Origin: an uncultured Thermoplasmatales archaeon
GTDB taxonomy: Archaea; Thermoplasmatota; E2; UBA202; DSCA01
NCBI GenBank assembly: GCA_964606745.1
Contig: CAZSHJ010000002.1
Span: 2,629-66,628 of the forward strand
DNA: 64,000 bases
Reading direction: 5' to 3'
This document shows positions 5,279 to 62,501 of this stretch, piece after piece (positions within the stretch are counted from its first letter, which is position 1; each line of letters begins with the position of its first letter). The position numbers and the translations under genes were made by a program. Under the pieces are notes generated by a model, which was not told the origin of the DNA, searched no databases, and saw nothing but the letters and a program-made list of their open reading frames with translations.

Positions 5279-5337
5279 AAATTGCAAAACGAAAGTTTTA
5301 AGGTAACAATTGCATTATAATCTTTGGAGGCAAAAAT

Positions 5338-11300: not shown

Positions 11301-12072
11301 TGCAAGTGGAACAAATCCAAGCATACAAATCACAATGAACTCTGGCAAAACAATAACTGCACATTTTGTAGAGACAACTCCCCCAAATCAACTTCCAACT
11401 GTTGCAATAACTTCTCCAGCCAATGGTGCAACCGTGAGCGGAACTGTGAATATTCAGGGCACGGCTGGTGATGCTGATGGGGCTGTCCAAGACGTGCAAG
11501 TAAAGGTTGATTCAGACTCATGGATTTCAGTGTTTATAGTTGATTCTGGTTCAGGGGGTTATGATTCATGGGGTTATTGGTGGAATACTACCGCTGTTGC
11601 AAATGGAAGCCATACAATTTATGCTCGTAGCTATGACGGAACGGATTATTCAAGCATTGATTCTGTGACGGTGAATGTGAACAACATTCCGCCGAATCAT
11701 AAGCCCACAGTGGATATAATCTTTCCATTGGATGGAACAGAAGTGAAGAAAACATTTACTATCCACGGAACTGCAAACGATGAAGATGGAGATGAAATTC
11801 AGGTGGAGATAAAAATTGGTGATGGAAACTGGACTATTGTTAATGGAACAACAATGTGGAATTATTCATGGGATACAACTGGCTTTGATAATGGAGATTA
11901 TGTTATACAGACAAAGGCATATGATGGGCATGAATATTCAAACATTGACTCAATAATGGTTAAAGTGAATAATAAAAAAGGTGGCGGTGGCATTCCGGGC
12001 TTCGAACTAATTTTGCTTGTGGGGGCAATTGTTGCCGTGCTTTTGATGGGAAGGAGAAAACCCAATCTTTAG
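5338..12072 (+). CDS. Giant (2244 aa) cell-surface protein: right-handed beta-helix (NosD/CASH-like) modules, Ig-like domains, three InlB-B-type repeats, C-terminal PGF-CTERM archaeosortase signal
   Basis: Signal peptide. Many xSNNxxGI beta-helix rungs. A ~520-aa supermodule (VYVDDDFNESTP...YYENVVVNKSINLIGENRNTTIIDG...ADWVNIS cap + helix + QRPTVNI...ARSYDG...VNN Ig-like domain) occurs three times. Three B-repeat-like units (YTLNILVSPESAGTVTLSPSGGTYDEGTVVTVTAHANTDYEFNHWSGD). C-terminus GIPGFELILLVGAIVAVLLMGRRKPNL is a PGF-CTERM. Strong RBS ggaggcaaaaatATG. Confidence 0.85.
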   Translation: MRGKKVGILLLIVASLVIASFVIAEMKNGLDIKEVRAEPNGGNILYVGGTGLDNYTTIQAAIDDANPGDTVFVYNGTYYENVVVDKSINLIGENKNTTIIDGNGTGNVVNISADWVNISGFSIRNSGSNLRIFGIFASGYNNIIIFSCIISNNDIGVVLSGYNNTVFSCIISNNDIGVVVLSGYNNTVFSCVISNNGFGVFLSGYNNTVFSCIISNNGFVGIRLDSSSNITISNNTFTNDGITIAGSLSHFIHRIENNTVNGKSLLYYKNENNVVLDGAGTGQLILVNCSNFEIKNINISDTHIGIEVAYSSNITVSNCNLSNNYEGIRLEYSSNTTISSCNISNNYDGIQVYCSTNNTIADCTISSNFNGIGIELKYSSNNTISSCTISSNIYITYIGILLFESSNNNLIYHNNFINNVNQAYDDGDNTWDNGYPSGGNYWSDFDEPSEGAWDNNSDGIADSPYYIPSGSNQDRYPLINPWNMTINQRPTVNIAFPFNGSTVNGTIIVNGTANDTDNTIQKVEIKIDNGSWMIANGTTSWNYSWDTTTVSNGNHTIYARSYDGEDYSTIVQVNVTVNNIILPPPSIVYVDDDFNESTPGWQYDHFDKIQDGIDAVADSTVYVFNGIYYENVVVNKSINLIGENRNTTIIDGSGMGDVVYVSADWVNISNFTIQGSGNSYPFDIGAGMNICSNNNTIFCNIFSNNGNGLVLSYSNNNSITSNHIYNNSRGVLLSYSNNNSITDNSFLNDGLSTTDSYQNTVINNTVNGKPLVYLEDESDMVVDNAGQVILVNCDNITVQNLELSNTTVGIELQDSNNCFIFGNLISNNRLGMVFDSSSNNVISDCNILNNSFSEGLGVGISLDTSDYNTISNCNISHNGIGIALLHSYLNTIYNSAISNNYAGFILFGTGDNTVFFNNFIGNRYITFLNPSTGIIWGSYRSYTYNGTNYTNHLGNYYDDYSGNDTDGDGIGDISYKIDEHSYDHHPLAMPKQNYIILPPPQPPTVNITYPYNGMTLNGTVIITGIADDIDGIVQKVEISTDFFQWITAVGTILWNYTWNTTTVSNGFHVISARSYDGIEYSDIAAVMVTVNNTYASLSVVYVDDDFNESTPSWDYDHFDNIQDGIDVVAENGTVYVYNGTYYENVVVNKTINLIGEDRNSTIIDGNGTENVVNISADWVNISGFSIRNGNWCGIYTRYSNNTTLIGNIIKDNIGSGTLSLFSNNITISHNSILLNGGSGIELWNPNFANISNNIISKNILDGINVSSSSSSTFTSNLISNNTMFGIRMYDSSTDNNTISNNIICNNGYGIELAYSNNNTISNCNVSNSTIGIWLKQANNNTITNITSYNNWGDGIRLVESSFNHIDSCFVFGSQWNGLGFNYSCNHNVIKNCTIANNWDGIRICTSSHNSISMCTLINENNNIILDMSDYTDIEKCEIKEGQSGIKLVYSSSYNTISNCNISNNDEGIDLDSSPNNEIHYNNIYGNSEYGIRNWNSELQYVVNAAYNYWDFLSGPYHPTLNPTGTGDNVSDNVDFIPWLTAPVIGGMEGTLTEGENEVDAIDEADTIIEINATANNSMRIISYEEAPVEEPEVVKSIGKYIEIEVENETAVEWPIFIQIYYTQEDLDNTGITENQIIGIYFYNESSGEWELYNDAGVNTTDIMVSRKQYAGYVWANAWHLTNMTIGADNNPPEISNVDANPESQEINGYVNISCVVTDNIETSEVFVNITYPDSTYHNLSMVNIAGSDIHYYNASYSSEGNYEYFIWASDTSANANVSSKKSFSVFIPQYTLNILVSPESAGTVTLSPSGGTYDEGTVVTVTAHANTDYEFNHWSGDVSSSNPTVQITMDSDKSITVNFTENPPHQYTLTASVDPSGSGSITLNPLGGTYDEGTTVTATANPNTGYEFDHWSGDASGITSSIQITMDSDKSITAHFSVIQYTLTTSITPSGSGYVTLNPTGGTYDEGTVVTVTAHANSGYEFDHWSGDASGTNPSIQITMNSGKTITAHFVETTPPNQLPTVAITSPANGATVSGTVNIQGTAGDADGAVQDVQVKVDSDSWISVFIVDSGSGGYDSWGYWWNTTAVANGSHTIYARSYDGTDYSSIDSVTVNVNNIPPNHKPTVDIIFPLDGTEVKKTFTIHGTANDEDGDEIQVEIKIGDGNWTIVNGTTMWNYSWDTTGFDNGDYVIQTKAYDGHEYSNIDSIMVKVNNKKGGGGIPGFELILLVGAIVAVLLMGRRKPNL
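5748..6010 (+). repeat. Four near-identical tandem 63-69 nt repeats (one beta-helix rung, ~22 aa each) inside the giant surface-protein gene
   Basis: Direct reading: cagtggttacaataacactgttttctcttgcatcatctcaaataatgacattggtgttg... reiterated. Units encode SGYNNTVFSCIISNNDIGVVL variants with 3-nt indels. Confidence 0.8.
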
Positions 12073-21858: not shown

Positions 21859-22983
21859 TCAGATAACAAAAACATCCACCATATCCTTCGATATTTTTCC
21901 TTTATCACTGTAAGCATACACCTCCGCTGTATGGAATCCTGGAGATGTATGCATGTCCCAGGAGAAAGGTGCTTCGTTATCCACATGCTGCTTTTCACCA
22001 TCAACATAAAACTCTGTTCTCTCTGTATTTGTTGCATTTACTCTTATGGTTGTATGTCCGAAAACCCTTGGTATGCCAACCTCAAATACCACCCTGCCGA
22101 ATATTGTTGGCATTTCCCTTCCCATAATGTAGGCATGATAGCGCCTCGGTTCCTCGATGTATACTTTTGGCACATCGGGCATGAAGTTTCCGTATGGGCC
22201 GTCCATATAGAGCACTCCTGTACCGCCGTAGCAGTGGGGTATGAGCATATCTGCATCGTATGCCATTCGGAACCAGCCGTTCTCGCCCCAGTTCGTGCCC
22301 CAGCTGTTTTTCACCAGCCAGCATTGCTGTTCATCATCATAACCGAATAGGGCGACAAGATGGCCGCCTGTCAGCCTGCCCCATCTGTGCTTGTATATGC
22401 CGCCGTGATAATGCATGAAATCCTCCCAGATAAATATACATATGACCAGTGGCCCATGTTCAATCAAAGCCCTTTTTATGCTGTCCATATCGTTTTCAAC
22501 GTATCCCCACTCCGTTATCTTGACGGTTCTGTTCTGCCAATCCGGCAGTGTCATGTTGCACGGTGCATCGGTCTTTCTCTGGGGGTCCGGGAAGCATCCC
22601 TCATCCGGAACGCCGTGTTCTACCAAATAGTCGGATGCATGACTGGTGTTCACGCCCCATGCACATGTGCCGCCCGAGCAGAAGAACAGATGTGCCTCTG
22701 ACAGATCACATCCGAAGTTATATCCGACCTTGTAATGAACCATGGTTTCCAGTGCTGAGCATAGAGCATACGCTTCGCAGCTCGGGCATGGCTCCTGATT
22801 TTTTACGGGCGTGGTAAAATCAGTGCCGTTTATATCCCGCCAGCTAAATTTTTCCGGTAGTGGAGAGGGGGCATCCGTGCTTTCTTGCTCTATTGTTTCC
22901 CTTCCGAAGAAATTATTTCCCAGCCCAGCCGAGGGTAGAAGTAGAGTCAGAACGATTGCAATAGACACAAAGGATTTTTTCAT
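21859..22983 (-). CDS. Secreted papain-family (C1A) cysteine protease with C-terminal extension
   Basis: Signal peptide. QEPCPSCEAYA (catalytic Cys region), GGHLVALFGYD (His) and VKNSWGTNWGENGWFRM (Asn) align with the papain QGxCGSCWAF / GHAV / NSWGxxWGExGY signatures. Confidence 0.85.
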   Translation of the reverse strand: MKKSFVSIAIVLTLLLPSAGLGNNFFGRETIEQESTDAPSPLPEKFSWRDINGTDFTTPVKNQEPCPSCEAYALCSALETMVHYKVGYNFGCDLSEAHLFFCSGGTCAWGVNTSHASDYLVEHGVPDEGCFPDPQRKTDAPCNMTLPDWQNRTVKITEWGYVENDMDSIKRALIEHGPLVICIFIWEDFMHYHGGIYKHRWGRLTGGHLVALFGYDDEQQCWLVKNSWGTNWGENGWFRMAYDADMLIPHCYGGTGVLYMDGPYGNFMPDVPKVYIEEPRRYHAYIMGREMPTIFGRVVFEVGIPRVFGHTTIRVNATNTERTEFYVDGEKQHVDNEAPFSWDMHTSPGFHTAEVYAYSDKGKISKDMVDVFVI

Positions 22984-27160: not shown

Positions 27161-27946
27161 ATGGAAAAGAAGAATTTGGGTTATGTACTGGCATTGGACG
27201 AGGGGACATCCAGTGCCAAAGCTTTTGTAATTGACCATTCGGGCTTGATTGCAGGAAAGGGACAGTGTCCATTCAATCAATATTTTCCAAAACCGGGATG
27301 GGTTGAACATAGCCCCGAAGAGATATGAGATGCACAGATAAAAGCCATCAAGCAATCCCTGCATGATGCCGCCGTCAATACAAAGCAAATTGCATCCGTT
27401 GGGATTGCCAACCAGAGGGAAACTGCAATATTATGGGACATGAAATCGAATCAATCTGTCCACAATGCAATCGTATGGCAGGACAGAAGAACATCTGAAA
27501 TAATTGATGCTTTATCAGAAGATGAACGGGCATTGATAAAGGGGAAGACCGGTCTTGTTGCCGATTCCTATTTTTCCGCATCAAAGATAAAATGGATGCT
27601 CGACATCATTCCGGGATTGAGGAGAAGGGCGGAGCAGGGGGAACAGGCTGCTTTGGGCGCCTATATTTATATAGAGAACAACGGGGCATTGCCTTTTGAA
27701 TGGAAGCCGGTGAAAAAGGGCAGAAATATTCGGCTGTTGATTCCACATTACATAAGCGGAGAGAATGACGTGAAGGTTTATGCCAGGGTGAGAAAACCGC
27801 TGCGAAACGTGACTATAAAATTTCCTGAGATTGCAAGGAAAGACAGCAGGAAGGCGGTGATGCCCGGAGAGATGATAATGACCCGATTGAGAAAACAGGA
27901 ACTCAACCGGGTTAAAGGGAAGGTTACTATGGAGGCCATAGTATGA
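27161..27946 (+). pseudogene. Decayed glycerol-locus remnant: N-terminal ~165 codons of glycerol kinase fused in-frame to the C-terminal ~80 codons of the G3P-dehydrogenase-associated FAD oxidoreductase; internal TGA
   Basis: [28 protein letters not shown]...[16 protein letters not shown] is GlpK-like. It hits TGA (27326-27328) exactly where the conserved Trp (EIW) is expected. Glycerol-kinase similarity ends at KIKWMLDIIPGLRRRAEQGEQAALG. The tail GRNIRLLIPHYI...VYARVRKPLRNVTIKF...AVMPGEMIMTRL parallels the C-terminus of the 62847..63929 protein (GKNVRYVVPQFL...FYFRVKEESEDVNIVI...VVKPPEMVKVVM). Confidence 0.7.
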
Positions 27947-28324: not shown

Positions 28325-29090
28325 TTATGCGTGTGCCTTTATCCAGTCGACTATCGTTTTGTGAATTTCATCGGCCCATTCTGGGTCTTCGAATATTTCG
28401 TGATATGCCCCCCTAAATTCCCTCAGCGTTTTATCTTCGATCTTTAACTCCTGCATGAATTCACGTGCTCCCTTTATCGGTGCCAGTACATCTGCCGTTC
28501 CATTCAAAATCAGCACGGGTACGGTGATATTTTCAGCTTCTAAATGGGTCTTCTTCATGTGGACAAAAAGGCTTCTTGCAAGTGCGATAGAAATGCGGTC
28601 ATGCACCAGCGGATCATTGATGTAATTTTCAACGGTTTCTTTATTTCTTGAAAGTGTTTCCGGTTTTATTGTGTTGTTAATCGTCGCAGATGGCATGATT
28701 GCACCTAAAAATTTGGCAAGTCCGACGAAATCTTGAGGTATTATCGCCGTGGGCGAGAGCAGGTGCTGAGGCTATCATTCCCTTAATTCTACTGGGGTAA
28801 AGTTCGGCATATCTGATGGCTGTGACCCCCCCGAGGCTGTGCCCAAGAATAAATGGTTTTTTGTTAATCTCATCTATTATTTCGTTTATTATGCCAAGGG
28901 CATCCTCAACTCTTGCATGCCCCCTCTTTCCATCGCTTTTTCCGTGTCCCGGCCAATCGAAGGTATAGACGGCAAAACCTTCGTCGTTGAGCATTTTGAT
29001 GAGCCCCTCATATCTTCCGCAGTGCTCTCCAAGCCCGTGCACGGTTATGACCCAATCCTTGCCCTTCCCGAATTTTGTTTTGTATATCAT
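28325..29090 (-). pseudogene. Alpha/beta hydrolase (lysophospholipase/monoglyceride-lipase-like) split by a frameshift
   Basis: ORFs 28677..29090 (HGLGEHCGRY...GHSLGG...SAPAL) and 28325..28696 (C-terminal Asp/His region) are two halves of one ~255-aa hydrolase in different frames. Could also be a sequencing error. Confidence 0.6.
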
Positions 29091-30854: not shown

Positions 30855-31811
30855 ATGCCGAGAAAAAGTCTTGCTTTAGGAGTGATATTTGGGGTTGTCG
30901 TACTTTTATCAAGTTCTGTACTTTCCCCAGTTGCAGATGCATTGGATTGGGGGGCTATGAGTGCTTCTCCTAATGTTACCCCTTATTATATCGACAGATA
31001 CGGGAGTGGCTCTCTGACGCTTACCGTGAGTTATAGTGCCTTCTTTTTCCAGTACTTTCCGGTGTGGGTGGAGATAAATATTATTAACTGTCCGAGTTGG
31101 CTTACTGTTACCCCAGCGCAGAAAAACTTCGTGTTGCAGAAGGCAGAGAGCAAAGCTGTCAAGATAGGTCTGACTCTCAATCAGCAGGATGTTGAGGCAG
31201 GCAACATGCAGGTTGTAGAATTTGAGGTTACCGGTAGGATAATTCTGGGTGGAGAACTGAGGCAGGTGGCGACGGGTAAGGCGGATATACAGGTGGGTGT
31301 AAATCCATATACCCAGATAACTCTCGAGATTGCAAAGCCAATAGAAAGGACAGCCCCTGACAGGGAATTAACATTTCCTATCACTGTGAAAAACTGGGGG
31401 AATGCACAGACAACCGTTACATTAAGCCTGACAGATGACCCCGGAAAATGGAGGTACATAATAAACCCACAGCAGATTATTTTATCTCCTAAAAAATCCG
31501 GCGATTCGAATCCGACGGAACAGGTGGCATCACTGACACTTACATCGCCTCACGGAGCCGTCATTTCATACCACAACGACTGGCAGGGAATTGCAATACA
31601 GGCAGTGGCAAGAACGGATGGCAAGTATTACATTCTACAGGGTGATCATTTCGAAGTTTCCCAGCAGGATAAGGAGAAAGTTACGATTTTCAATGGTTAT
31701 GCAACCATGCTTGCAAAGAACAAGGGATTTTATGTTCCGGGTTTCGATTCAATATTGCTCATAGGGGCGCTGGTTTCAATAGTGTTGATGATGAGGCGGA
31801 AGAGGCAGTGA
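30855..31811 (+). CDS. Secreted surface protein with PGF-CTERM sorting signal (hypothetical)
   Basis: Signal peptide. C-terminus VPGFDSILLIGALVSIVLMMRRKRQ (PGF + TM + basic tail). Confidence 0.75.
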   Translation: MPRKSLALGVIFGVVVLLSSSVLSPVADALDWGAMSASPNVTPYYIDRYGSGSLTLTVSYSAFFFQYFPVWVEINIINCPSWLTVTPAQKNFVLQKAESKAVKIGLTLNQQDVEAGNMQVVEFEVTGRIILGGELRQVATGKADIQVGVNPYTQITLEIAKPIERTAPDRELTFPITVKNWGNAQTTVTLSLTDDPGKWRYIINPQQIILSPKKSGDSNPTEQVASLTLTSPHGAVISYHNDWQGIAIQAVARTDGKYYILQGDHFEVSQQDKEKVTIFNGYATMLAKNKGFYVPGFDSILLIGALVSIVLMMRRKRQ

Positions 31812-31851: not shown

Positions 31852-33606
31852 ATGAGGAAGATGCGTAAAGTTGTATTCCTGTTGTTGGCTATTATATTCT
31901 TAATGTTTTCCATGCCTTTACAGGAACCGGCAAGGGCAGGAATTATCCCATGGGATGAATGGTCAAATTTCTGGTGGAACGTGCAGGTAGAGCCGGTGGG
32001 TGATTCCACTGCAACTGTAGAGCCTCTGGGACAGTACAAATTTCATTTCAAATTCTGGAACGGGGGAGTTGTAAATAGTCCTTCAAAGATTCCTTTGCGT
32101 TATTATCTTAGAATTACCAACATAAGCGGTGAGGGATGGAATGCATATGTAAATCCCACGTTTATTTATCTTGGCCAGGATGAGTCATACAATGCCACTG
32201 TATCTGTAACAGCAAGTGTGAAACCATCATATATTGCGAATATAACATGCGAGATTGCAATGCACGTGAAATTAACGGATTTCATAAAATATGGGAGTAT
32301 AACTTTTCAGGTTCGTTCGCAGCCGTACCGCTGGCTGGGTGTTGATATACCGAACCCTGTTGTGGAAGGGAAGCAGGAGCATGTTTATACGATTCCAATC
32401 AATATAGAAAATAACGGAAATTATGATGATGAATATCTTATTTCCGTGCCATATGCCCCGTCTAACTGGTTGTATGCTCTCTCGGAGCAGAAGGTATATC
32501 TCTTCCCTGGCGAGAGTGCCCGGGTAAATCTGACATTTTATATTCCTCACGAGAGGCTTTACATCCAGTATGAGAATTATCTAATGCAGGTGAGGGTGCA
32601 ATCGGTAAATGACCCGGGATACTACATAACAAGGCCTGTTGTCGTGAGTTTGAGCGGCTTACACATGACTGTGGGGCAGCTTGCCGTTTTTGCTTCTATT
32701 ATGCCGTCTATCACTTTGCTGGTCGCTCTGGGCATTTCATTGACACATTTGAACAATCCCTGTCGTTGCATCCCGAAGCCGTGGAAGGAAAAGCAGGAGA
32801 GAGCCCGTCTCTCAAAGCTTGTACAGGGAGATGCATTAAAAGAGAAGAAGATGATGAAAGAGGAATGGAAATCAGCGTTTTACTATTGCAAGGGTGAAGC
32901 GGAGAGAAAACGGAAGTTGAAGCACCTCTTGGACAAAAAAGCAAGGAGTCAGAGGGCTCTGGAGAGGGAGATAATCGGGGAGTGGAAAAAAGCCTGGACG
33001 ATGCCCTACCAGGAATGGAAGAGGCAAACCGAAGAGCTCAGGGATGAATACGAGGTACGGAAGAGGAAACTTCTTTCCGGATGGAGGGAAGTAAATACCA
33101 GGATAAAAAGGACTGACAGAGAGATGGGTTGTCAGATTCCACTTATACCGAAGCTCGAGATGCCCCCGTTAAAGATGATTCCCGAGCCCGGCAAATTGCC
33201 GAAACCCCGCATACCGAAGTACGAAGTGAACAGCAGGCGACTTAAACTTGTAGGACCTGACAAGATTTTGCTGGAGAGAATCATGATGCCTCTAAAGAGG
33301 GGCAAAAATATTGCGAGGATGGAGAGCGATAAGATAAGGAGTATGGGGACTGGACGGAAAGAAAAGTTAAGGCTGGCATTTGCCGCACTGGGTAAAAAAT
33401 TGGATGTCGAGGTGGCAAGGGCAAATAGTAAAATCAGAATCGAGAGAGAAAGGGCAACGGGAAGCAGAAAAATTATGGAGCAGAGGAGGACGGAGGAGGG
33501 AAAAAGGAGGGAGAGGCGTAGGATTGAAGAGGATAAAAGAAAAAGGGAAAAACTGGTGAGAAAGAAGGCAGAATTAAAGAAAAGATTTGGGAAAAAGAAG
33601 AATTGA
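31852..33606 (+). CDS. Type I membrane protein: signal peptide, ~270-aa extracellular beta domain, one TM, ~300-aa extremely K/R/E-rich cytoplasmic tail
   Basis: TM LAVFASIMPSITLLVALGISL at aa ~283. Tail full of EWK/KRK/RRE runs (KKMMKEEWKSAF...GEWKKAWTMPYQEWKRQTEELRDEYEVRKRK...RRTEEGKRRERRRIEEDKRKREKLVRKKAELKKRFGKKKN). Confidence 0.7.
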   Translation: MRKMRKVVFLLLAIIFLMFSMPLQEPARAGIIPWDEWSNFWWNVQVEPVGDSTATVEPLGQYKFHFKFWNGGVVNSPSKIPLRYYLRITNISGEGWNAYVNPTFIYLGQDESYNATVSVTASVKPSYIANITCEIAMHVKLTDFIKYGSITFQVRSQPYRWLGVDIPNPVVEGKQEHVYTIPINIENNGNYDDEYLISVPYAPSNWLYALSEQKVYLFPGESARVNLTFYIPHERLYIQYENYLMQVRVQSVNDPGYYITRPVVVSLSGLHMTVGQLAVFASIMPSITLLVALGISLTHLNNPCRCIPKPWKEKQERARLSKLVQGDALKEKKMMKEEWKSAFYYCKGEAERKRKLKHLLDKKARSQRALEREIIGEWKKAWTMPYQEWKRQTEELRDEYEVRKRKLLSGWREVNTRIKRTDREMGCQIPLIPKLEMPPLKMIPEPGKLPKPRIPKYEVNSRRLKLVGPDKILLERIMMPLKRGKNIARMESDKIRSMGTGRKEKLRLAFAALGKKLDVEVARANSKIRIERERATGSRKIMEQRRTEEGKRRERRRIEEDKRKREKLVRKKAELKKRFGKKKN

Positions 33607-33670
33607 AAATGGGAAATTTCAGATATAAGGAGTTAGGCGAAATTACTGTTAGTTTAAGGAGAAGATAAAC

Positions 33671-34243
33671 ATGACTACAAAACCAGTTGTAATTAAGTTC
33701 TTTGCTCCTGTCATTGATGTCACAATTAATGCTCTAATGGCTGCTATTGATCAGAAAATGAAGCAAGGGATAACAGATTTTATAATCCTAATTTCATCAC
33801 CTGGTGGCTCAGTTTTTCACGGTTTAAGCGCATACAATTATTTGAAAGGATTACCTGCCACAATAACTACGCATAATTTCGGTAGTGTGGACTCAATAGG
33901 TGTTGTTCTATATTGTGGTGGTTCAAAAAGGCTATCAGTACCTCAGGCAAGATTCTTACTTCATGGTGTTAGTACCAACTTTGAACAGAAGACAAGCTTA
34001 GAAGAAAAGCAATTAGAAGAGAGATTGAAAGGATTAAGAATCGACATTGAGAATATCGCAAAAGTAATTGCAGCAAATACGGGTAAAAGCGTGGAAGCCG
34101 TGACGGATGCGATGCTTGAACGGACAACATTGAATCCTGAAGAAGCACAATCTTGGGGTCTTGTGAACGAAATTAAATCAGATCTCTTTGAAGCGGGTAG
34201 CGAAGTGATTTCGATTCAATTTCAACAACCACAAAAACCGTAA
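33671..34243 (+). CDS. ClpP-family (S14-like) serine protease, stand-alone
   Basis: FIILISSPGGSVFHGLSAYNYL...FGSVDSIGVVLYCGGSKRLSVPQARFLLHGV...EEAQSWGLVNEI aligns with ClpP [22 protein letters not shown]...GQAASMGAFLL...RVMIHQP...EAVEYGLVD. Strong RBS aggaga. Confidence 0.75.
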   Translation: MTTKPVVIKFFAPVIDVTINALMAAIDQKMKQGITDFIILISSPGGSVFHGLSAYNYLKGLPATITTHNFGSVDSIGVVLYCGGSKRLSVPQARFLLHGVSTNFEQKTSLEEKQLEERLKGLRIDIENIAKVIAANTGKSVEAVTDAMLERTTLNPEEAQSWGLVNEIKSDLFEAGSEVISIQFQQPQKP

Positions 34244-34441
34244 CGTTGCCTATCAGTGCATATTCGGCTTTGTTCCTTCGGAAACTTCTCATATCCGTTA
34301 CACGTTATCCGAAATTGCAACTTTATTGAATAAGGAATAGATTGGTAGGTGGAAGTCCTCCAGCCTCTCAATATTCAATACCTGATGATGTGATGATGAA
34401 ATAGATGTGTAACTATGCCATGAGACCGTTAATAACTTATA

Positions 34442-35968
34442 TTGCCGTTACATTACATTTCTGATATTATGATAGAGAAGAAGATGCTATCCATACTCGT
34501 TCTTTTTGTATTGGTAGTGCCTGTTGGAATTACGACCAATTTTTTCAATGCCGGTGAGGGAAAAGAATCCAGTACTGTCTATGGCGAATTTCATCAAGCG
34601 GGTAGTGCATTCGTTCCACCTGACAACATCACCGTGGTGGTGGACGTTATGCGTCTTCGTGCCATGACGCTTTGTGACGACAACCCCGGATTTTATTTCA
34701 AGATATTCATAAACGGCGAGAATTCCATGTGGATGGACCAAGTTGTCAATGGCAAGGACATATGGTTTGAGTGGCCCACTGCTGCCGCGACAATCCCGTA
34801 CGATGTCAATAAAACCGTTATCATACAGATAGAGGTATTGGAAGAACGCAGGGGGCAGGATGCTCAGTGCGATATAAGCAAGGAGAAGGGTCCGTATGAG
34901 GGCGGGAAAACCGTTACCCTTTTCTATGATATGAAAAGAGGAGAGTGGACAGGTGACGATTATCTCAAGGATGGAAACGGATACGGCCATTGCTCCGGTT
35001 TTGAGGACGGGAGCGAGGACGAGAATGACTGCGAGATATGGTTCGATGTTTATCAATGGGGTGAAGATGGGTGGTGGGGCGATGAAGACCGTTTGACTTA
35101 CTGGGAAAAAGTCCATGTTTACAAACTAAACGGCTCGGAGAATTATGGTAGAGAGGATTTCAACGGCGACGGCATACCAATGTATTGGGAGGACAAATAC
35201 GGATTTGACCCGTTTGCCGAAAGCAATGTCTCGCAGCAGGATCCTGACAAGGACGGGTTGACAAATTTCGAAGAGTGTAAAACATCTCAGTGGCTTTCAG
35301 ACCCGTTTGCCCAAGATGTATTCGTGGAAGTGGATGGCATGCAGGCCAAACATTCATGGCAGGATCCATATATGTTGCCCAAGGAGTCTCAAAATCTGAT
35401 ATGCAATCCGTTTGCCAGGCATAACATCACGCTTCACATAGACGACGGCATCATGTGCGGCGGCGGGGATTTGATTCCGTATGACGACGGTATGAGCAGC
35501 AAGGATTTGATGGCTGCCCGGTACAAGTATTTCCTCAATGAAGATGAGAATAACTGGAAAAGGGGAGTTTTCCATTGTGCCATCGTATGTAACCAGATGG
35601 AGTGGTACGGCCGACCGGCGGGCGGGAGAATGTTCTACACAGACAGCCATTGTGTTGGCGGGCAGTATGTTCGGAACTGGGCATGGGCATTCTATCTGCA
35701 GGGAAGCAGCTATTACAAGGCATTTGCAAGCGTGTTCATGCATGAACTTGGTCACACTCTTGGCTTGCTCGGTTTTGAAGGTATAGACAATGAAAATAGC
35801 AGATTTCTATGGTATAAAGAGTACTGGGATTGGGGCACGTACAGAAGCTGTATGAACTACCGCTATGTGTACAAACTGGTAGATTATTCAAGCGGTGATG
35901 ATGATGACTATGATCAGGATGACTGGGCCGCGCTTGACTTGACCCGCTTCACTGGAGAGGGTTGGTGA
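34442..35968 (+). CDS. Secreted zinc metalloprotease (HExxH, metzincin-like) with Ca-binding aspartate-rich repeats
   Basis: Signal peptide (MLSILVLFVLVVPVG; true start probably 34484). DPDKDGLTNFEE TSP3-like motif. C-terminal FMHELGHTLGL zinc-binding motif. Confidence 0.75.
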   Translation: MPLHYISDIMIEKKMLSILVLFVLVVPVGITTNFFNAGEGKESSTVYGEFHQAGSAFVPPDNITVVVDVMRLRAMTLCDDNPGFYFKIFINGENSMWMDQVVNGKDIWFEWPTAAATIPYDVNKTVIIQIEVLEERRGQDAQCDISKEKGPYEGGKTVTLFYDMKRGEWTGDDYLKDGNGYGHCSGFEDGSEDENDCEIWFDVYQWGEDGWWGDEDRLTYWEKVHVYKLNGSENYGREDFNGDGIPMYWEDKYGFDPFAESNVSQQDPDKDGLTNFEECKTSQWLSDPFAQDVFVEVDGMQAKHSWQDPYMLPKESQNLICNPFARHNITLHIDDGIMCGGGDLIPYDDGMSSKDLMAARYKYFLNEDENNWKRGVFHCAIVCNQMEWYGRPAGGRMFYTDSHCVGGQYVRNWAWAFYLQGSSYYKAFASVFMHELGHTLGLLGFEGIDNENSRFLWYKEYWDWGTYRSCMNYRYVYKLVDYSSGDDDDYDQDDWAALDLTRFTGEGW

Positions 35969-41787: not shown

Positions 41788-44700
41788 ATGAAAAAGATAG
41801 GCAAGATTATGATGTGTCTGCTGGTAGCAGCAGTTTTTGTGGTGCCTCTTATACCACTGGAAAATATGGTGGAAGCTAATAATAGTACAGATTATAAATT
41901 GTTAATAATCGGTCCAGACGAATTCGCAGATGAAATGATTATGTTAAGGGATCATAAGGATTCCATTGGTATACCAGCCCTAGTGGTTGGCTTGAAACAA
42001 ATAGATACTATGTGGGGTAATGCTGGTGTTGATGAACCTGAGCAAATTAAAAAATGTATTGAACATTATGAGAAAGAATTTGACATTGAATATGTTTTGC
42101 TAGTCGGTGATTGTGATAAATTCCCTGTGAGATATACTGCCAGCTGCGTTGACTATGCTGATGAACCCGTTGAAATTTTATTTGCAAATACTGATTTGTA
42201 TTACGCTGATTTATATTATGATTCATGGCTCAAACTTTTTGATGATTGGAATTCCAGGAAACAAGGTATTCACATGCAATATTTTGGTGAAGTTTATAAA
42301 AAAGATCCAATAAATTATGATAACTTTGATGGGTTTCCCGATATTGCCGTGGGCAGAATTCCTGCATCAACAGCCAATGAAGTAGAAACATACGTAAAGA
42401 AAGTTATCAACTATGAGCTTAATTATCCCACCAGCAAAAACGTGTTTATAGCCGAAAAGGATGGAGTTGAATCAACTCAGGAAAGCCTTGACCATGCAAA
42501 GGATTTGGCAGAACATTTTAAAAAGAATGGTTTCCTCCCAGAAGTTTACTACTTCGGCGAATTAGAAAAATACAATACTGCTGATAAAATTGTGGCATCA
42601 AATCAAAGGGCTCCTTTGATTAATGGTTATCTATCTATGTCCCTGTTTGCGAGTTTTTGGGGACACGCTTCACCAACAGGATGGAGTTGGTATGATCATC
42701 CAGATCTAAACACGCTGAGCAATAAAGATAATTTACCCATCATATTTTCTAATGGATGTGACATAGCTCGATTTGCCCCAAAAGAAGGGGAGCCATATAT
42801 AGGTATTAATGGAGACGAATGGTGGAGAACTGGTCAGCTTGTGATGTATTATGATTATGATGATCATTCGAATTTGATTACCATACATAGTGATGAAAAA
42901 TATGATAGCACAAAAACTACAGAAATACGATTAGCACAAGGGGATATAGTTGACTCGAATGACAACCAGCAAGAAGCAGTATATGTTGTTGAGACATACG
43001 AGGAAGATATACATAAAGTGGCATTAATGGTTTACCATCATGGATCAAAATTCGAACGCCAAGGTTTTTATCTTAAAAGATTTGAAAATGCATATAATCC
43101 AGATGTTGCCACTGGTAATTTTGATACTGATCCAGAAGATGAGGTTGCTGTTACTTATGAATATGGTAACGGAAACGTCATCATTTCGTTTTATGATTTA
43201 GTTGATGCATATGCTAAAACAACTGGGAAAAAGTATCAAACATTTAGTTGTGTTGGATCCATATTGTTAAATGATTGTTCACATCCACGTGTTACCACAG
43301 GGGATTTTACCTCAGATTCTTCTCAGGATGAACTTGTTGTTTCGGTGATAGATGGTAATGGAAAGCTTGCTATCTTTACATATGAAATTAATAAGGTTCA
43401 TGGGATTGAGTATGCATATCGTCGGATAAGTGATATCAGACTTGATATTACATGGAGAGAATATCTTCCTGAAGATACTTTTGTTCCAATGGTTGCAGCA
43501 GGAAATCTAGATTCTGGAGACCCTAAAGATGAAATAGTTACAACCTTTATTGATGAACAGGAGAGATTAGCTGTTCTCGCATTCGATTTCCTGGGGCCCA
43601 ATAATATAGTTAGAATTGGCGATATTCGACTTGAAGATGCACAGAATGCCGATGTTACAATGGGAGATTTTAATAATGATCAAGTTGATGACATTGTGGT
43701 AACCTTCGAAGATGGACTTGGGAGGGTAGGTATTCACGTATATAATTATAATAATGCACAACCCTCAATTGATAAAAGGTTACAAGAAAGTGGTGATGTT
43801 CGACTCAATGATGCCTCCAATCCAACGGTTTCCGTGGGTAATTTCGATTCAGATTCCTCTAAAGAAATAGCTGTTTTTATGATAGATGGCTCGACTCAGG
43901 GTGCTGTTTTTGTGTACGACTATGTTGGAATAAATAATCTTAAACGGTTAAGTTCTTTTAGGGAAAAGCAGACAATAAACCCTTTTATACCCTTGGATAT
44001 TGTGTGCGGTAATTTTGATCATGAAATAAATATCGATGAAATTGTTACCTATTTTTATCGTTCTGCACATATTCTACCAAATCCTCCTGTTTCTGTTCAG
44101 CCTTCAAAATTTGATGTTGAATCAATGGCGGAAGATTTTCTTGTCAAAAGCAATAATGGGGCAATAGTATTTATAGGCTCTAACACGGGCGCTCAAGAAT
44201 ACGCTACAGACCTTGGCGATCTTTTTTTTGAGGCCTACCTTGACAAAGCCATCGATGTTGTTGGCGATATGTGGAATTATGCGGTTGCTGAGTACTATAA
44301 GGTCCACGATCCTGCAACTATTAAACAGGTAGAAAATTGTTTGGAAGATCCTAATAAAGTATGTTATTATAAATGTACTGAGTTATATCAACCAGCGAAA
44401 TTACATTTTTTTGGTGATCCATCGATAGTGGTGGGGGGATTAACGCAAAATTCTGGATCAACGCAAAATACCGAATTATTTATAACTCATGATACAACAA
44501 TGGCTCCTATTGAATACAACAACGTTACCATAAAAATAATGAATTCTGATATTGTTTTAGATTGCAATGGTGCAACAATTCAGGGAAGAGGCACAGGCTC
44601 TGCAATTGAAATATCAAAGGGAATTAATGATGTTACAATCAAGAATGGCATCATAAAGAATTATAATTACGGAATTCATTGTTCTTCCAATAACAACAAA

Positions 44701-45279
44701 ATACTGAATAATCTTATTACCTCAAACAAATATGGTCTCAACCTCAATAGCTGTGAAGCAAATAAAATTGAGAATAACTCTGTGACTTATAATGAGTATG
44801 GTATGGGTCTATATGATTCTTCAGGTAATTCAATGGTAAACAACATATTGGCTGATAATACCGAAGAAGACATATATTTATCTAATTCTCCAGATAACAC
44901 CATATTTAATAATGCTCAATATAAATCGCCGATAGCGAGCTTTGAGTATTCGCCGAAATCGCCAGTTGAAGTCAACACAACGGTGTTCTTTACTGATACA
45001 TCTGTTGATACTGATGGGATTATCGAAGATTGCACATGGTATTTTGAGGATGGGACGGTCGTCTATGAAACGGCAACTAGTTATACTTTTACCGAGGCTG
45101 GGGAACATTCTGTAACTGTTACGGTTACTGATGATGACGGAGCAACAGCTAGGTATACTGCAACAATCGAGGTGACGAAGGAAGATGTAGATGATAATAC
45201 GCCCGGGTTTACACTCTTGCTGTGTATTGCAGCAATTTTCATCATTATACAGCAAAAGAAGAAGGGAGGTAAAAAATGA
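41788..45279 (+). CDS. Large surface protein: C25 (gingipain-like) peptidase domain with ~450-aa FG-GAP-repeat insertion, beta-helix repeats, PKD domain and PGF-CTERM
   Basis: Signal peptide. C25-like N-terminus (KLLIIGPDEF ... YVLLVGDCDKFPV). His-Gly/Cys motifs FWGHASPTGWSW and IFSNGCDIARF, then GAIVFIGSNTGAQ ~460 aa later. Six FG-GAP-like repeats (TGDFTSDSSQDELVV, MGDFNNDQVDDIVV, VGNFDSDSSKEIAVF ...). NosD-like rungs (NGIIKNYNYGIHCSSNNNKILNN). PKD-like domain. C-terminus TPGFTLLLCIAAIFIIIQQKKKGGKK. Strong RBS aagaggaggag. Confidence 0.8.
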   Translation: MKKIGKIMMCLLVAAVFVVPLIPLENMVEANNSTDYKLLIIGPDEFADEMIMLRDHKDSIGIPALVVGLKQIDTMWGNAGVDEPEQIKKCIEHYEKEFDIEYVLLVGDCDKFPVRYTASCVDYADEPVEILFANTDLYYADLYYDSWLKLFDDWNSRKQGIHMQYFGEVYKKDPINYDNFDGFPDIAVGRIPASTANEVETYVKKVINYELNYPTSKNVFIAEKDGVESTQESLDHAKDLAEHFKKNGFLPEVYYFGELEKYNTADKIVASNQRAPLINGYLSMSLFASFWGHASPTGWSWYDHPDLNTLSNKDNLPIIFSNGCDIARFAPKEGEPYIGINGDEWWRTGQLVMYYDYDDHSNLITIHSDEKYDSTKTTEIRLAQGDIVDSNDNQQEAVYVVETYEEDIHKVALMVYHHGSKFERQGFYLKRFENAYNPDVATGNFDTDPEDEVAVTYEYGNGNVIISFYDLVDAYAKTTGKKYQTFSCVGSILLNDCSHPRVTTGDFTSDSSQDELVVSVIDGNGKLAIFTYEINKVHGIEYAYRRISDIRLDITWREYLPEDTFVPMVAAGNLDSGDPKDEIVTTFIDEQERLAVLAFDFLGPNNIVRIGDIRLEDAQNADVTMGDFNNDQVDDIVVTFEDGLGRVGIHVYNYNNAQPSIDKRLQESGDVRLNDASNPTVSVGNFDSDSSKEIAVFMIDGSTQGAVFVYDYVGINNLKRLSSFREKQTINPFIPLDIVCGNFDHEINIDEIVTYFYRSAHILPNPPVSVQPSKFDVESMAEDFLVKSNNGAIVFIGSNTGAQEYATDLGDLFFEAYLDKAIDVVGDMWNYAVAEYYKVHDPATIKQVENCLEDPNKVCYYKCTELYQPAKLHFFGDPSIVVGGLTQNSGSTQNTELFITHDTTMAPIEYNNVTIKIMNSDIVLDCNGATIQGRGTGSAIEISKGINDVTIKNGIIKNYNYGIHCSSNNNKILNNLITSNKYGLNLNSCEANKIENNSVTYNEYGMGLYDSSGNSMVNNILADNTEEDIYLSNSPDNTIFNNAQYKSPIASFEYSPKSPVEVNTTVFFTDTSVDTDGIIEDCTWYFEDGTVVYETATSYTFTEAGEHSVTVTVTDDDGATARYTATIEVTKEDVDDNTPGFTLLLCIAAIFIIIQQKKKGGKK

Positions 45280-46691
45280 AAATTAAAAGAATCAAAGACA
45301 AATCCGTGCTAATAAAGAAAAAACTGCCGAATGTTATTATCTTTTTTTTGTTGCTTTGCTCCGTATGTACTATTTCGGGGTGCCTTGAAACTACAACGGA
45401 GATTGTGAACATCATGGAGCTTAAAGGCCCTGATTGGCAAGACTATATCGATAAAGAAGTTACTGTTGAAGGTATTTTCGTTAAAGACCCTCTTCCTATG
45501 TTGGTAACTACTCTGGATATAATGAAGACCAATCTCGAATTGCCTGACGAACACTTCATACGTTTATCGGGTGTACCAATTCAAGAAATAACACCAGAAA
45601 AGTATGGGGGCAGAGAACTGCGAGTTAAAGGTGTGATTAAGGTAATTGGTAACGATAATGATACCCACGTTAATTTAACAAAGTCATTAATGGGATTAGA
45701 CGTTGTTTCGTTTGAGTCCATCAGACTAGTGGACGAATATAATCCGGAGATACAGTCAATTGAAATACATCCTGATTCTCATTTTTCTCAGGCAGATAGA
45801 TATGCCATACTATTTAGCGGTGGTGGAAAGCACACTTCAAATCATGTACGGTACTGGAATGATTTAAAATTTATGTATAGTACGTTGGTAAATGAATATA
45901 AGTACTCAGAAGATTTGATAGTGGTTCTCTATGCTGATGGGACTGGCCGCGATAGTCAAATTCCGGTACATTATGCAGCAACACAAACAAATCTAGAAAC
46001 TGTTTTTGGGTTACTACGGGAAAGTTCAACGACTGAAGATCAAATATTTTTTTATACAACGGACCATGGGGGCGGGTTCTGTAAGAATGGAATAATTAGC
46101 ATGGGCAAAGTATACTATATATGTGGCGGTCGCCATGATTCAGATGGGGATGAAGGAATAACGGACACTATTTCCGAATCAGCATATAATCTAGATCTCA
46201 ATGATGACGGATTAATTTCGGGTAGTGTTTCCTGGGATGAAGAACTACGCAGTTGGGGGGGCCACATTATCGATGATTCTTTTGACGGTATGCTTGCCAA
46301 TTTAAACTATAATAAAATGATTATTGTTATGGAGCAGTGTTTCAGCGGAGGTCTTATTGCTGATATGGCACGGAGTGGTAATAACAGAATCATCATGTCG
46401 GCTGCTGGTGAATACGAGCCATCGGAGGCAATGCCACCAGATTATAACTACAACGAGTTCGTCTACTATTTTACTTGTGCCGTTAATAGAGAAACACCTG
46501 CTGGATTATCGGTAAACGCTGATTATGACGGCGATGGTGACATTTCAATGGTTGAGGCTTTCAACTATGCGAGAAACCATAACACGCGTTCAGAGACACC
46601 ATGGTACGAGGATAGCGGTGATGGTGTTCCCCATTCTGGAGAAATGCCATCTCAGGGTGAAGGACTCTTAGGAAGCGATACAACATTGTAA
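45276..46691 (+). CDS. Lipoprotein, clan CD cysteine peptidase, C13 legumain-like
   Basis: Start overlaps the preceding stop (ATGA). Lipobox-like ISGC. QIFFYTTDHGGG and IIVMEQCFSGGL match the legumain FxxDHG / EACESG His/Cys dyad context. Confidence 0.75.
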   Translation: MKIKRIKDKSVLIKKKLPNVIIFFLLLCSVCTISGCLETTTEIVNIMELKGPDWQDYIDKEVTVEGIFVKDPLPMLVTTLDIMKTNLELPDEHFIRLSGVPIQEITPEKYGGRELRVKGVIKVIGNDNDTHVNLTKSLMGLDVVSFESIRLVDEYNPEIQSIEIHPDSHFSQADRYAILFSGGGKHTSNHVRYWNDLKFMYSTLVNEYKYSEDLIVVLYADGTGRDSQIPVHYAATQTNLETVFGLLRESSTTEDQIFFYTTDHGGGFCKNGIISMGKVYYICGGRHDSDGDEGITDTISESAYNLDLNDDGLISGSVSWDEELRSWGGHIIDDSFDGMLANLNYNKMIIVMEQCFSGGLIADMARSGNNRIIMSAAGEYEPSEAMPPDYNYNEFVYYFTCAVNRETPAGLSVNADYDGDGDISMVEAFNYARNHNTRSETPWYEDSGDGVPHSGEMPSQGEGLLGSDTTL

Positions 46692-60941: not shown

Positions 60942-62501
60942 TCAGGTGCGCCACTTGAACGAACGCTCTATTGCCCTCTTCCATCCCTCGTAGAGCATGT
61001 TCCTTTTCCCCCTATCCATATACGGCTCGAATATTCTGTCAACTTTTCTCTTTTCAATGACTTCATTTTTTGATTGCCAGTAGCCGGATGCAAGCCCTGC
61101 AAGATATGCCGCTCCAAGGGCAGTGCCGTCGAGAATATCCGGTCTTTCGACCTTCACATCGAGCATATCCGCCATGAACTGTAGCAGAAAATCGTTTCGG
61201 GATGCGCCGCCGTCTGCCTTGATTGACGAAATTTTTAAGCCGGTATCGATTTCCATTGACAACAGAATGTCCCTGCACCTGTAAACGATGCCCTCGAGGA
61301 CGGCCCGCACTATGTGCTCCTTCTCCGTTTTTCTGCTCAAACCCACGGCAATGCCGCATGCATGGGGGTCCCAGTAAGGAGACGATAATCCCGTAAAAGC
61401 CGGCACAAAGTATACACCCGCCGTGTCCTCGACATCATTGGCCATGGCACCGGAGTCCTCCACGTTCCGTATAATGCCCACGTCCTTAAGCCACTGAACG
61501 GCAGAACCCGTCGTGTTCGTCATTCCCTCGAGCATGTAAGTTACCTTCCCGCCCATGCCCCATGCTATAAGGGGTACGAGCTTATGAAGGGATGCAGGTG
61601 GTTTGCCCCCCACATTCATGTCGATGAAGCTTCCGGTGCCGTTTGTACATTTTACCTCGCCGGGGTTGAAACATCCTTCGGCAAACAGAGATGCCTGCTG
61701 ATCCGCAACAGCACTTTTTATTGGTACCTTTGCCCCCAAAATTTCCCTATCAACGCTTCCGAAATCCCCTGCCGTATCCCGTACTTCTGGAAGGATATCA
61801 ACCGGAATTTCGAATATCTCGAGGAAAAGCCTGCTCCATTTAAGGGCAAAGGAATCGAACATACCCGTCGAACTTGCATTGGAATAGTCGGTTGCATGAA
61901 CCCTGCCCTTTGTCAAATTCCATATCAGCCACGTATCCATCGTACCGCATACAAGGTCTCCCCTCAGTGCTTTTTCCCTTGCTCCGTCCACATTATCCAG
62001 CAACCAGCGGGTGTGGGCGAGGGCAGAGGCAGGCGTGAAAGAGAGATTGGACGCCGTTACAAGAAGTGCCCCGGTGTTTGTCATGCGCAAGCCCTTCCAT
62101 ACCTTTGAAAAGCCCTTTGTAACATGCCCTATCGCCTTGACTGCCCTGATTTTTCCCTTTCTGTCCATCTCCTCGCATACGTCAGCCGTCCTTGTATCAT
62201 GCCACGTTATCGCATTGTATATCGGTCTGCCGCTCTTCCTGTCCCACAGAAGATTTGTCGAACGCTGCGTGGTGATGCCGATTGCCTCTATTTCCTTTGC
62301 CCCTACTTTGCCGCCCATCGTTTTTCTCATAACGGAAATACACTTTTTCCATACCTCCGATGCATCCTGTTCGCACCATCCGGGACAAGGAAAAACCTGG
62401 GAAATCTCCTCGTAAGCATGTGAAACAATGCGTCCATCGTGGTCAAAAATGATTGCACGTATGCCCGTCGTCCCCTCATCTATTGCCATAATATATCTCA
62501 T
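60942..62501 (-). CDS. glpK: Glycerol kinase
   Basis: 519 aa, FGGY kinase. N-terminal AIDEGTTGIRAIIFD; full length. Confidence 0.92.
   Translation of the reverse strand: MRYIMAIDEGTTGIRAIIFDHDGRIVSHAYEEISQVFPCPGWCEQDASEVWKKCISVMRKTMGGKVGAKEIEAIGITTQRSTNLLWDRKSGRPIYNAITWHDTRTADVCEEMDRKGKIRAVKAIGHVTKGFSKVWKGLRMTNTGALLVTASNLSFTPASALAHTRWLLDNVDGAREKALRGDLVCGTMDTWLIWNLTKGRVHATDYSNASSTGMFDSFALKWSRLFLEIFEIPVDILPEVRDTAGDFGSVDREILGAKVPIKSAVADQQASLFAEGCFNPGEVKCTNGTGSFIDMNVGGKPPASLHKLVPLIAWGMGGKVTYMLEGMTNTTGSAVQWLKDVGIIRNVEDSGAMANDVEDTAGVYFVPAFTGLSSPYWDPHACGIAVGLSRKTEKEHIVRAVLEGIVYRCRDILLSMEIDTGLKISSIKADGGASRNDFLLQFMADMLDVKVERPDILDGTALGAAYLAGLASGYWQSKNEVIEKRKVDRIFEPYMDRGKRNMLYEGWKRAIERSFKWRT

Follow-up and report, generated by a model that had tools for sequence, protein, structure and literature searches.

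A forward-strand gene in a 64-kb stretch of chromosome from an uncultured Thermoplasmatales archaeon (contig CAZSHJ010000002.1 of assembly GCA_964606745.1; the whole stretch is termed the window hereafter) encodes a 190-aa serine peptidase of the ClpP fold. In the explanation that best accounts for our results jointly, and which we consider reasonably probable, the product is a functional barrel similar to PpClpP1 of Pseudomonas plecoglossicida, lacking the pore gate, the catalytic Asp and a partner, and the gene was acquired horizontally as a cassette-like unit that is now fixed. That the gene is real and that its product belongs to the ClpP fold and family is close to certain, and sequence conservation makes it highly probable that this product is a functional protease under selection. 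A broader proposal is advanced only tentatively, namely that such proteins are undescribed, extraordinarily conserved gateless and Asp-less ClpP barrels that would serve as ATP-independent peptide shredders, and that they have been spread by integron-type cassettes over more than 20 bacterial and several archaeal phyla of anoxic sediments. If true, this would provide a Clp-type chamber protease for the archaea, which to our knowledge generally lack canonical ClpP and the Clp system, and a concrete functional example of cross-domain cassette transfer.

Family, active site and structure of the ClpP-like protein

The gene call is as follows, as supported by the ORF, Pfam, structure and conservation:

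33671-34243, forward strand: CDS of an N-terminally truncated ClpP-fold serine peptidase, 190 aa

The ORF occupies exactly these positions and follows a strong Shine-Dalgarno sequence, AAGGAG at 33656-33661, located 9 nt before the ATG. Its sole Pfam domain was CLP_protease (PF00574), matched at E=4.5e-22 and 79 bits against a cut-off of 20, such that family membership is far beyond chance. The ClpP equivalog model TIGR00493 gave 51.1 bits against a cut-off of 308.6, the best NCBIfam ClpP subfamily model gave 67.3 bits against 228, and all NCBIfam ClpP models were far under their cut-offs. Judged by its sequence, the protein is not a canonical ClpP, and neither "ATP-dependent Clp protease proteolytic subunit" nor "head maturation protease" should be used as an annotation for such genes. 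Sequence analysis returned no signal peptide, transmembrane (TM) segment or hydrophobic segment in the 190 residues.

A preliminary sequence-only reading of this DNA had described an alignment with ClpP across the Ser and His catalytic regions, and this was borne out. The nucleophile Ser75 (in GSVDS; codon 33893-33895) and His98 (in RFLLH; codon 33962-33964) line up with their ClpP counterparts, and each was retained in 110 of the 111 diverse cluster representatives that made up our wider-family alignment. Cluster counts for this family were 97 at an E-value threshold of 1e-30 and 933 at 1e-10. Catalytic residues were nevertheless only partly kept, since Arg151 (codon 34121-34123) occupies the position of the canonical Asp, the third residue of the triad. 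Across the same representatives, the six commonest residues at position 151 were R, G, Q, K, S and T, together accounting for 96 of the 111, and Asp was not among them. Positions G46 and R87 were invariant, G45 was present in 110 sequences, and an acidic residue usually stood just before the Ser (D in 87, E in 7).

The N-terminus was ~21-25 residues shorter than that of canonical ClpP: residue 7 of the query aligned with residue 28 of one canonical chain, and residue 16 with residue 38 of another. The protein begins directly at strand beta-1, and its AlphaFold2 model has no N-terminal hairpin. Based on this start and the residue offsets, the axial loops and helix A, which form the pore gate and the unfoldase contact, are absent. 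The ClpP core, the handle helix and the oxyanion-hole SPGG motif are all present. Neither the non-Asp third residue, nor the missing gate, nor the scores far under every ClpP equivalog cut-off had figured in the sequence-only reading.

The AlphaFold2 monomer model, generated from the diverse 111-sequence alignment, had a pLDDT of 97.4. The best PDB sequence match was 9UXT (E=1.6e-19, compared with ~1e-11 for canonical ClpPs), which is the structure of PpClpP1. This was also the best structural match in Foldseek, aligned over its full length with TM scores of 0.89/0.92 across 185 columns, as opposed to ~0.78 over ~166 columns for canonical ClpPs. Identity to 9UXT was roughly one third, and 26% over the structural alignment.

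Conservation, spread and the transferred unit

The window protein belonged to an extremely conserved group, with more than 100 clusters 83-93% identical to it and copies 70-92% identical in species-representative genomes from more than 20 bacterial and archaeal phyla. The bacterial carriers were most numerous among Dehalococcoidia metagenome-assembled genomes (MAGs) and also included Nitrospirota, Aminicenantes, Omnitrophota, Thermosipho, Dependentiae and many others, while the archaeal carriers were Methanophagales, Bathyarchaeota and Thermoplasmatales; some of the carrier contigs were 0.9-4.4 Mb long. Among 81 loci, 53 of the 190 residues were at least 98% conserved. The median protein identity was 76%, 4-fold sites were saturated in most pairs, and the ratio of nonsynonymous to synonymous substitution rates (dN/dS) was 0.03-0.13, with a median of 0.068; for the window gene it was ~0.05. 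GC content at third codon positions (GC3) ranged from 0.18 to 0.83 across loci and mostly tracked the flanks. The nearest relatives of the window protein came from Methanophagales (92% identity), Clostridia (91%) and Caldisericum (91%), at dS of 0.5-1.0, and nearest-neighbor relations in general mixed Bacteria and Archaea. Collectively, the host-tracking GC3, the saturated 4-fold sites, the low dN/dS and the mixing of domains indicate that the gene has moved horizontally more than once, that many of these transfers are not very recent, and that its product is subject to very strong purifying selection. The archaeon very probably acquired its copy horizontally, as judged from these comparisons, and the most likely source is bacteria, by way of a small mobile gene cassette.

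Comparison with loci from other genomes and metagenomes (designated by L-numbers) delimited the unit that appears to have moved. Similarity of the noncoding flanks across phyla begins at a GTTAGGC located 39 nt before the ATG, runs through a leader of the pattern ATTACT..TTTAAGGAGG..AAAC, and resumes past the stop codon with CGTCGCCTAAC. The exact GTTAGGC was found 35-85 nt before the start codon in nine loci with otherwise different upstream DNA, and at -39 in five of them, against a background of 0.07 per kb. In the window and L004-L077, the leader took the form TTTAAGGAGG-N5-AAAC-ATG, which was kept across phyla. It resembles the strong ribosome-binding region of the phage T7 gene 10 type, and this resemblance, along with the conservation of the leader, hints at selection for a high translation rate in whichever genome receives the unit. 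The corresponding features of the window are listed below, all on the forward strand.

33632-33638: GTTAGGC core (GTTRRRY type), left boundary of the transferred unit, from flank comparison
33639-33670: conserved 5' leader, ATTACT..TTA..TTTAAGGAG..AAAC, which includes AAGGAG and travels with the gene across phyla
34244-34310: decayed attC-like palindrome directly 3' of the stop codon, from covariance model R1

The window palindrome retains an R''-like GCCTATC at 34248-34254 and an R'-like GTTATCC at 34304-34310, with one internal hairpin deleted and several pairs broken. A search of 8 kb with covariance model R1 ranked it first (16.4 bits, E ~0.015, aligned to the full length of the model), and it folded no better than shuffles (z=-0.4). 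This 3' site is probably no longer recombinogenic.

Better-preserved copies were present elsewhere. The element is ~85 nt long and reads (G)GCTAAC-A-GCGGATRAA.G ... CTTTATCCGC-5 nt-GTTAGGC, with the ribosome-binding site of the next ORF following at once, and this layout matches the R''-L''...L'-R' organization defined for integron attC sites (PMC5027507, PMC7370490). Model R1 was built from five copies, and intact homologs in five loci scored 79-108 bits (90 bits in L004), at the following positions (strand not listed).

L004:4095-4178, L026:1891-1976, L045:6755-6840, L042:9190-9275 and L048:2194-4946: attC-like elements, from the covariance model

In the L048 region, four elements form an array. 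Every one of them follows a different ORF on the same strand, and the ClpP-like gene constitutes one such unit. In L006, a copy of the element ends exactly at the core upstream of the ClpP-like gene. The L004 copy folded strongly as single-stranded DNA (z=-6.1), and 63 nt on the 3' side of the L004 gene were 90% identical to sequence upstream of the L048 gene. The L004 gene is bracketed by a 19-nt inverted repeat with 89% complementarity, which is an ancestral repeat now decaying. A selected mRNA helix between the 5' and 3' ends was considered for repeats of this type and rejected, as pairing was 61.6% compared with 61.7% in shuffles, although the register was specific.

The 18-nt core of the element was found in at least 120 metagenome contigs, and the model identified 108 copies in 80 of these (L085-L164). 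Nineteen of these metagenome loci had two to five copies each, which were always co-oriented, and 88 copies had a same-strand ORF ending just upstream, with these ORFs representing 76 unrelated families. The copies measured 80-90 nt, where attC palindromes span ~55-140 nt, and had near-invariant TAAC...GTTA ends and a central three-way junction. In an alignment fitted to the covariance model itself, 90.1% of cells paired, compared with 80.9% in shuffles, and 20 of 25 pairs had changed on both sides, a level reached by 0 of 500 shuffles. A relaxed R'' pattern fitted 41 of the 108 copies and a strict R' pattern 29. The strict attC regular expression (RYYYAAC...GTTRRRY with complementary cores) returned no match; this pattern proved overly stringent, given that R'' often takes the form GGCTAAC or ATATAAC while R' is a hybrid.

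One array, in L141, is headed by an Xer/IntI-like tyrosine recombinase (L141:1852-2904) on the same strand as the cassettes. It passed the cut-off of the Xer/integron integrase model NF040815 (238 vs 220 bits) and was below that of the IntI model TIGR02249 (211 vs 265); one possible identity is an integron integrase lying in inverted orientation. Given the conserved flanks, the attC-like layout, the covariation, the co-oriented arrays, the diverse cargo, the remnant in the window and the alternative fillings of the slot described below, an integron-type cassette appears to be the most likely vehicle, a view we favor without strong conviction. The element may represent an attC family, hitherto undescribed, that is carried by Chloroflexota and archaea living in sediments.

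The variable slot and its genomic surroundings

The window is an ordinary archaeal chromosome segment, with genes for a class-I LysRS, PurP (DUF1246/DUF1297), the his operon, an Lhr helicase and an oxidative-stress cluster. The LysRS had its closest counterparts in Thermoplasmatota MAGs from sediments, and its identity to the best match bearing a name was 77%. With this placement and the presence of PurP, the description of the gene as an orphan ClpP-fold protease in an archaeon was upheld. In the family survey of the window, all ORFs of at least 349 aa judged real, and most smaller ones, were assigned or were scanned without a match. No AAA+ Clp ATPase is encoded within the 64 kb, in agreement with the proposal that no ClpX or ClpA partner lies nearby, and the same stretch has no capsid, portal or terminase gene; scans of the window also gave no tRNA and no Rfam match.

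The ClpP-like gene lies in a variable slot bordered on the left by a 584-aa gene ending at 33606 and on the right by a 508-aa gene starting at 34442.

33617-34424, no strand assigned: variable slot between two conserved host genes, from synteny with L205, L206 and L207
34311-34424, forward strand: ~115 nt between the attC-like remnant and the host junction, part of the variable segment, from flank comparison
L205:2513-2970 and L207:3213-3937, strand not listed: equivalent slots with the same host flanks

In related Thermoplasmatota, this block is ordered PRC, 318 aa, ~588 aa, the slot, ~498 aa, 312 aa, PurP and MFS. The slot contains the ClpP-like gene only in the lineage of the window, a 134-aa DUF8058 gene in L205 and L206, and an unrelated 159-aa ORF in L207. 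The junctions are fixed, at ~10 nt past the upstream stop codon on the left and at ACCGTTAATmACTTATATT on the right, and the host-conserved right flank, ACCGTTAATAACTTATATT, begins at 34425. No homolog of 34311-34424 was detected in any comparison locus.

The genes immediately upstream (30855-31811 and 31852-33606) had sub-threshold "choice-of-anchor T" matches and hydrophobic segments at the N-terminus and at the C-terminus or internally, and from these sequence features both are plausible surface proteins. To that extent the earlier description of two upstream envelope proteins holds, whereas the functional meaning given to their adjacency does not, as the slot holds unrelated genes in relatives. 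With the same flanks and three unrelated fillings, the adjacency reflects an insertion hot-spot and not functional coupling, and the position of the gene beside envelope-protein genes is incidental.

Beyond the window, we examined 139 immediate neighbors of the ClpP-like gene in 80 loci, and Pfam identified no AAA+, stomatin/NfeD or capsid gene among them. The commonest families were TrmO (13), URO-D (8) and LigA (4). All-vs-all clustering of the flanking ORFs likewise exposed no conserved partner gene, with nothing in common beyond synteny within classes. In eight loci of a divergent subclade, a gene of the URO-D family (uroporphyrinogen decarboxylase/methyltransferase-like) is located directly upstream, often with overlapping stop and start codons; the loci of this subclade (L063-L074 and L080) come from Omnitrophota, TA06, Ratteibacteria and Dependentiae. 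It is the only candidate operon partner seen in any locus. The gene in L026, L042, L045 and L048 is in a variable insert between leuC and leuD, the content of which differs among loci and in L045 also includes HicAB-like toxin-antitoxin genes. In two distant genomes, the ClpP-like gene adjoins a type III restriction-modification (R-M) pair, Mod and Res (L050:2014-8567 and L004:3522-9499), and in L050 the surroundings are a tRNA-adjacent island carrying a phage-type integrase together with the type III R-M genes.

Several other genes of the window were noted. Secreted peptidase genes are concentrated at 3227-12072, 21859-22983 and 41788-46691 and encode two C25 gingipain-like, a C1 papain-like and a C13 legumain-like peptidase, and a 2244-aa NosD/beta-helix/Big_7 surface protein is also present. 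The peptidases and the large surface protein fit a lifestyle of detrital-protein degradation, and the peptidase set matches that reported for the protein-degrading Thermoprofundales/MBG-D (PMC6461988). The 508-aa protein that borders the slot (34442-35968, forward strand) begins with a hydrophobic segment at its N-terminus and carries an HEXXH zinc-protease motif (FMHELGHTLG). It had no Pfam match, and only in NCBIfam was there a resemblance, a very weak one, to thrombospondin-repeat surface proteins. Related Thermoplasmatota retain it within the syntenic block, and it may represent an undescribed metallopeptidase family. At 28325-29090 on the reverse strand, two overlapping ORFs of 123 and 137 aa each cover part of an alpha/beta hydrolase (Hydrolase_4), which the related genome L206 encodes as a single 256-aa gene; the split was seen in two independent assemblies (the window and L001) and is therefore probably a real frameshift or pseudogene. 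At 27161-27946 on the forward strand, two short ORFs (55 and 168 aa) beside a DUF1667 gene match the N-terminal part of an FGGY carbohydrate kinase and look like remnants of a decayed gene, and an intact FGGY kinase is encoded at 60942-62501 on the reverse strand.

Proposed mechanism, alternatives and known systems

We propose that the gene product is a stand-alone ClpP-fold serine peptidase of a "short ClpP" clade, of which PpClpP1 is the only characterized member. Its subunits would form a double-heptamer barrel with a permanently open pore, in which a Ser-His dyad would cut peptides and unfolded chains that diffuse in, with no requirement for ATP or an unfoldase. In a protein-fermenting sediment archaeon, this would be a housekeeping peptide-degrading chamber. 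The gene would probably be cotranscribed with the upstream surface-protein gene, given the shared strand and the 64-nt gap, and its presence here reflects horizontal transfer of a unit comprising the GTTAGGC, the leader, the CDS and the attC-like palindrome. Bacteria, chiefly Dehalococcoidia, and other archaea have this unit as well, and its behavior in the bacterial relatives is that of an integron-type gene cassette. The assembly and activity are modeled on PpClpP1, which is an N-terminally truncated homotetradecamer with a dilated pore of 42.7 A that does not bind ClpX and that has a Ser-His-Pro "triad", keeping ~60% of its activity when the Pro is mutated (PMC12900304). Within the wider family, classical signal peptides were predicted in 27 of the 111 representatives, and one was fused to an N-terminal multi-TM domain; as exported members cannot use ATP-dependent unfoldases, action independent of ATP is favored. 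By analogy with PpClpP1, we thus lean toward an ungated, ATP-independent, open-barrel Ser-His mechanism, with confidence somewhat on the favorable side of even.

A number of points weigh against this interpretation. The oligomeric state, the open pore and the activity are extrapolated from a relative that is about one-third identical, and PpClpP1 itself has low intrinsic activity and works best as a ClpP1P2 heterocomplex with a canonical ClpP (PMC12900304), which is not expected in an archaeon. The model leaves unexplained why Arg is invariant at the Asp position in the tight clade, and a generic peptidase role does not account for the extreme conservation. With respect to the vehicle, regular-expression and phmmer searches of 80 loci placed no integron integrase beside any ClpP-like gene, the sole recombinase being the phage-type integrase of L050; the recombinase heading the L141 array fails the IntI-specific cut-off; and strict GTTRRRY/RYYYAAC motifs occur only in a minority of the ClpP loci. 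Furthermore, many Dehalococcoidia carry the gene in stable synteny with housekeeping genes.

Two alternatives concern what the protein might do inside the cell. It could be an effector or accessory of inter-genomic conflict (defense, anti-defense or addiction), which would explain its travel in cassettes, islands and phage accessory regions, and which we judge unlikely. The closest relatives do sit beside the type III R-M genes of L004 and L050 and beside toxin-antitoxin genes in L006 and L045, large ORFs adjoining those in L005 and L006 look R-M-like by eye, a PpClpP1-like homolog neighbors arc in the immunity region of a P22-like phage, and integron cassettes are rich in conflict functions. 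However, PADLOC gave zero matches for the protein and its window neighbors, the gene is always single and without a conserved partner, and in many Dehalococcoidia and a Thermoplasmatales MAG its context is housekeeping (TrmO, LigA and tRNA synthetases); host-ameliorated GC and very low dN/dS are likewise unlike fast-evolving conflict genes. It is also rather improbable that the protein supplies the proteolytic chamber of an ATP-dependent machine by binding an archaeal AAA+ unfoldase outside the Clp family (PAN, Cdc48/VAT or another) that is encoded elsewhere in the genome. ClpP-fold barrels normally partner unfoldases, the very high surface conservation could mirror a conserved partner, and the inspected part of the host genome was these 64 kb only. 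Yet the N-terminal loops that contact an unfoldase are missing, as is binding to ClpX in PpClpP1 (PMC12900304), and near-identical proteins occur in Bacteria and Archaea although the two domains have different sets of unfoldases. In addition, roughly one in four members of the wider family is exported to where ATP is absent, and none of the 80 loci has an AAA+ neighbor.

The remaining alternatives were raised, in one form or another, by the sequence-only reading. A dedicated maturation or processing protease for the two upstream envelope proteins would fit a gene that shares its strand with the 584-aa surface-protein gene and is separated from the end of the latter by 64 nt, in a window rich in secreted proteins and peptidases, but it is very improbable: the protease has no signal peptide or TM segment while its putative substrates are extracytoplasmic, the surface-protein pair is kept in related archaea that have other genes in the slot, and the protease is kept in more than 80 genomes without the pair, with different neighbors in all 80 other loci. 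A prophage relic, that is, a ClpP-related prohead protease left by a degraded virus, was suggested by the match to PHROG head-maturation families (E=7.7e-23, about as good as that to ClpP) and by sub-threshold NCBIfam prohead models. We consider it remote, as the window has no structural or packaging genes, the head-maturation models were far under their cut-offs (48.1 vs 120 bits for NF045542 and 55 vs 475 for NF045540), no relative was found among the 2.9 M viral contigs of IMG/VR, and the protein is fused to neither a scaffold nor a capsid domain; across phyla, the gene is also adapted in composition to its hosts and strongly constrained by purifying selection. In tblastn searches against phages and plasmids, the best identities were at most 34%, and the best phage match, at 32.5%, was an ORF annotated as "head maturation protease" in a P22-like phage, outside the head module. 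Least probable of all is membrane-protein quality control of the NfeD/STOPP or SppA (S49) kind. These are also ATP-independent ClpP-fold proteases, some of them archaeal, and a free-standing ClpP fold is indeed what we observed in the window; but no NfeD or S49 domain matched the protein, no NfeD, S49 or stomatin was found among the neighbors examined, there is no membrane segment, and the NfeD/STOPP and SppA families use a Ser-Lys dyad, as opposed to Ser-His here.

Textbook ClpP works as a chamber with a gate and relies on an ATP-driven unfoldase. The gene described here points to a widespread ClpP-barrel clade without gate, Asp or partner, which is among the most conserved proteins common to sediment Bacteria and Archaea. 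If the proposed mechanism holds, this clade would represent a distinct, unfoldase-independent use of the ClpP fold and a tractable model of the open-pore state, which ADEPs and similar antibiotics bring about artificially. It also documents a specific, selectively maintained gene crossing the domain boundary on what appears to be a cassette-like vehicle.

Among known systems, canonical ClpP (MEROPS S14; TIGR00493/PF00574) shares with the window protein the alpha/beta core, handle helix, SPGG motif, and Ser and His positions, and differs in having the N-terminal gate, the catalytic Asp and an adjacent unfoldase gene. Phage head-maturation proteases (NF045542, phrog_94) and the P22-like ORF are similar in being free-standing ClpP folds without an unfoldase and in their length and motifs, whereas the window protein falls under the family cut-offs, is outside any head-module context and had no relative in IMG/VR. 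The P22-like ORF, from Escherichia phage phiv205-1 (MN340231.1; L084:3989-4525), is a stand-alone short ClpP-like gene of 178 aa that neighbors arc in the immunity region, at a distance from the head genes, and the "head maturation" label it bears is probably wrong. The ORF product is a close homolog of PpClpP1 (E=4.6e-35), and its identity to the window protein is 33%. Through this kinship, PpClpP1 falls within a clade of short ClpP-like accessory genes that mobile elements carry, with the clade of the window protein as its sister, and the solved "ClpP1" may itself derive from a mobile element.

As a vehicle, the unit is comparable to the cassettes of integrons and CALINs, which are known in Archaea and have been proposed as platforms for cross-domain transfer (PMC9668308). 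The likeness extends to the single ORF with a short leader, the start at a GTTRRRY-type core, the imperfect palindrome with ..YAAC/GTTR.. ends, the co-oriented arrays with highly diverse cargo, the conservation of structure over sequence, and the cross-domain spread of the ClpP-like gene. It differs in that no bona fide IntI was seen beside the ClpP-like loci, that R'' often departs from RYYYAAC, that the element has a three-way junction, and that the window copy is decayed and stands alone between large host genes instead of in an array.

The closest comparison is with PpClpP1. The latter comes from a bacterium with canonical ClpP2 and ClpX, whereas the window protein is archaeal and no Clp partner was detected in the 64-kb window; the clade of the window protein is also far more conserved and cross-domain, and the wider family includes exported variants. 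Nonetheless, both are short ClpP folds (183 aa in PpClpP1) without the N-terminal loops and helix, both keep the Ser and His with a non-acidic third residue (Pro in PpClpP1, Arg in the window protein), and the motifs THN-x-G-x-V-(D/E)-S and (R/K)FL(L/F)H are common to the two.

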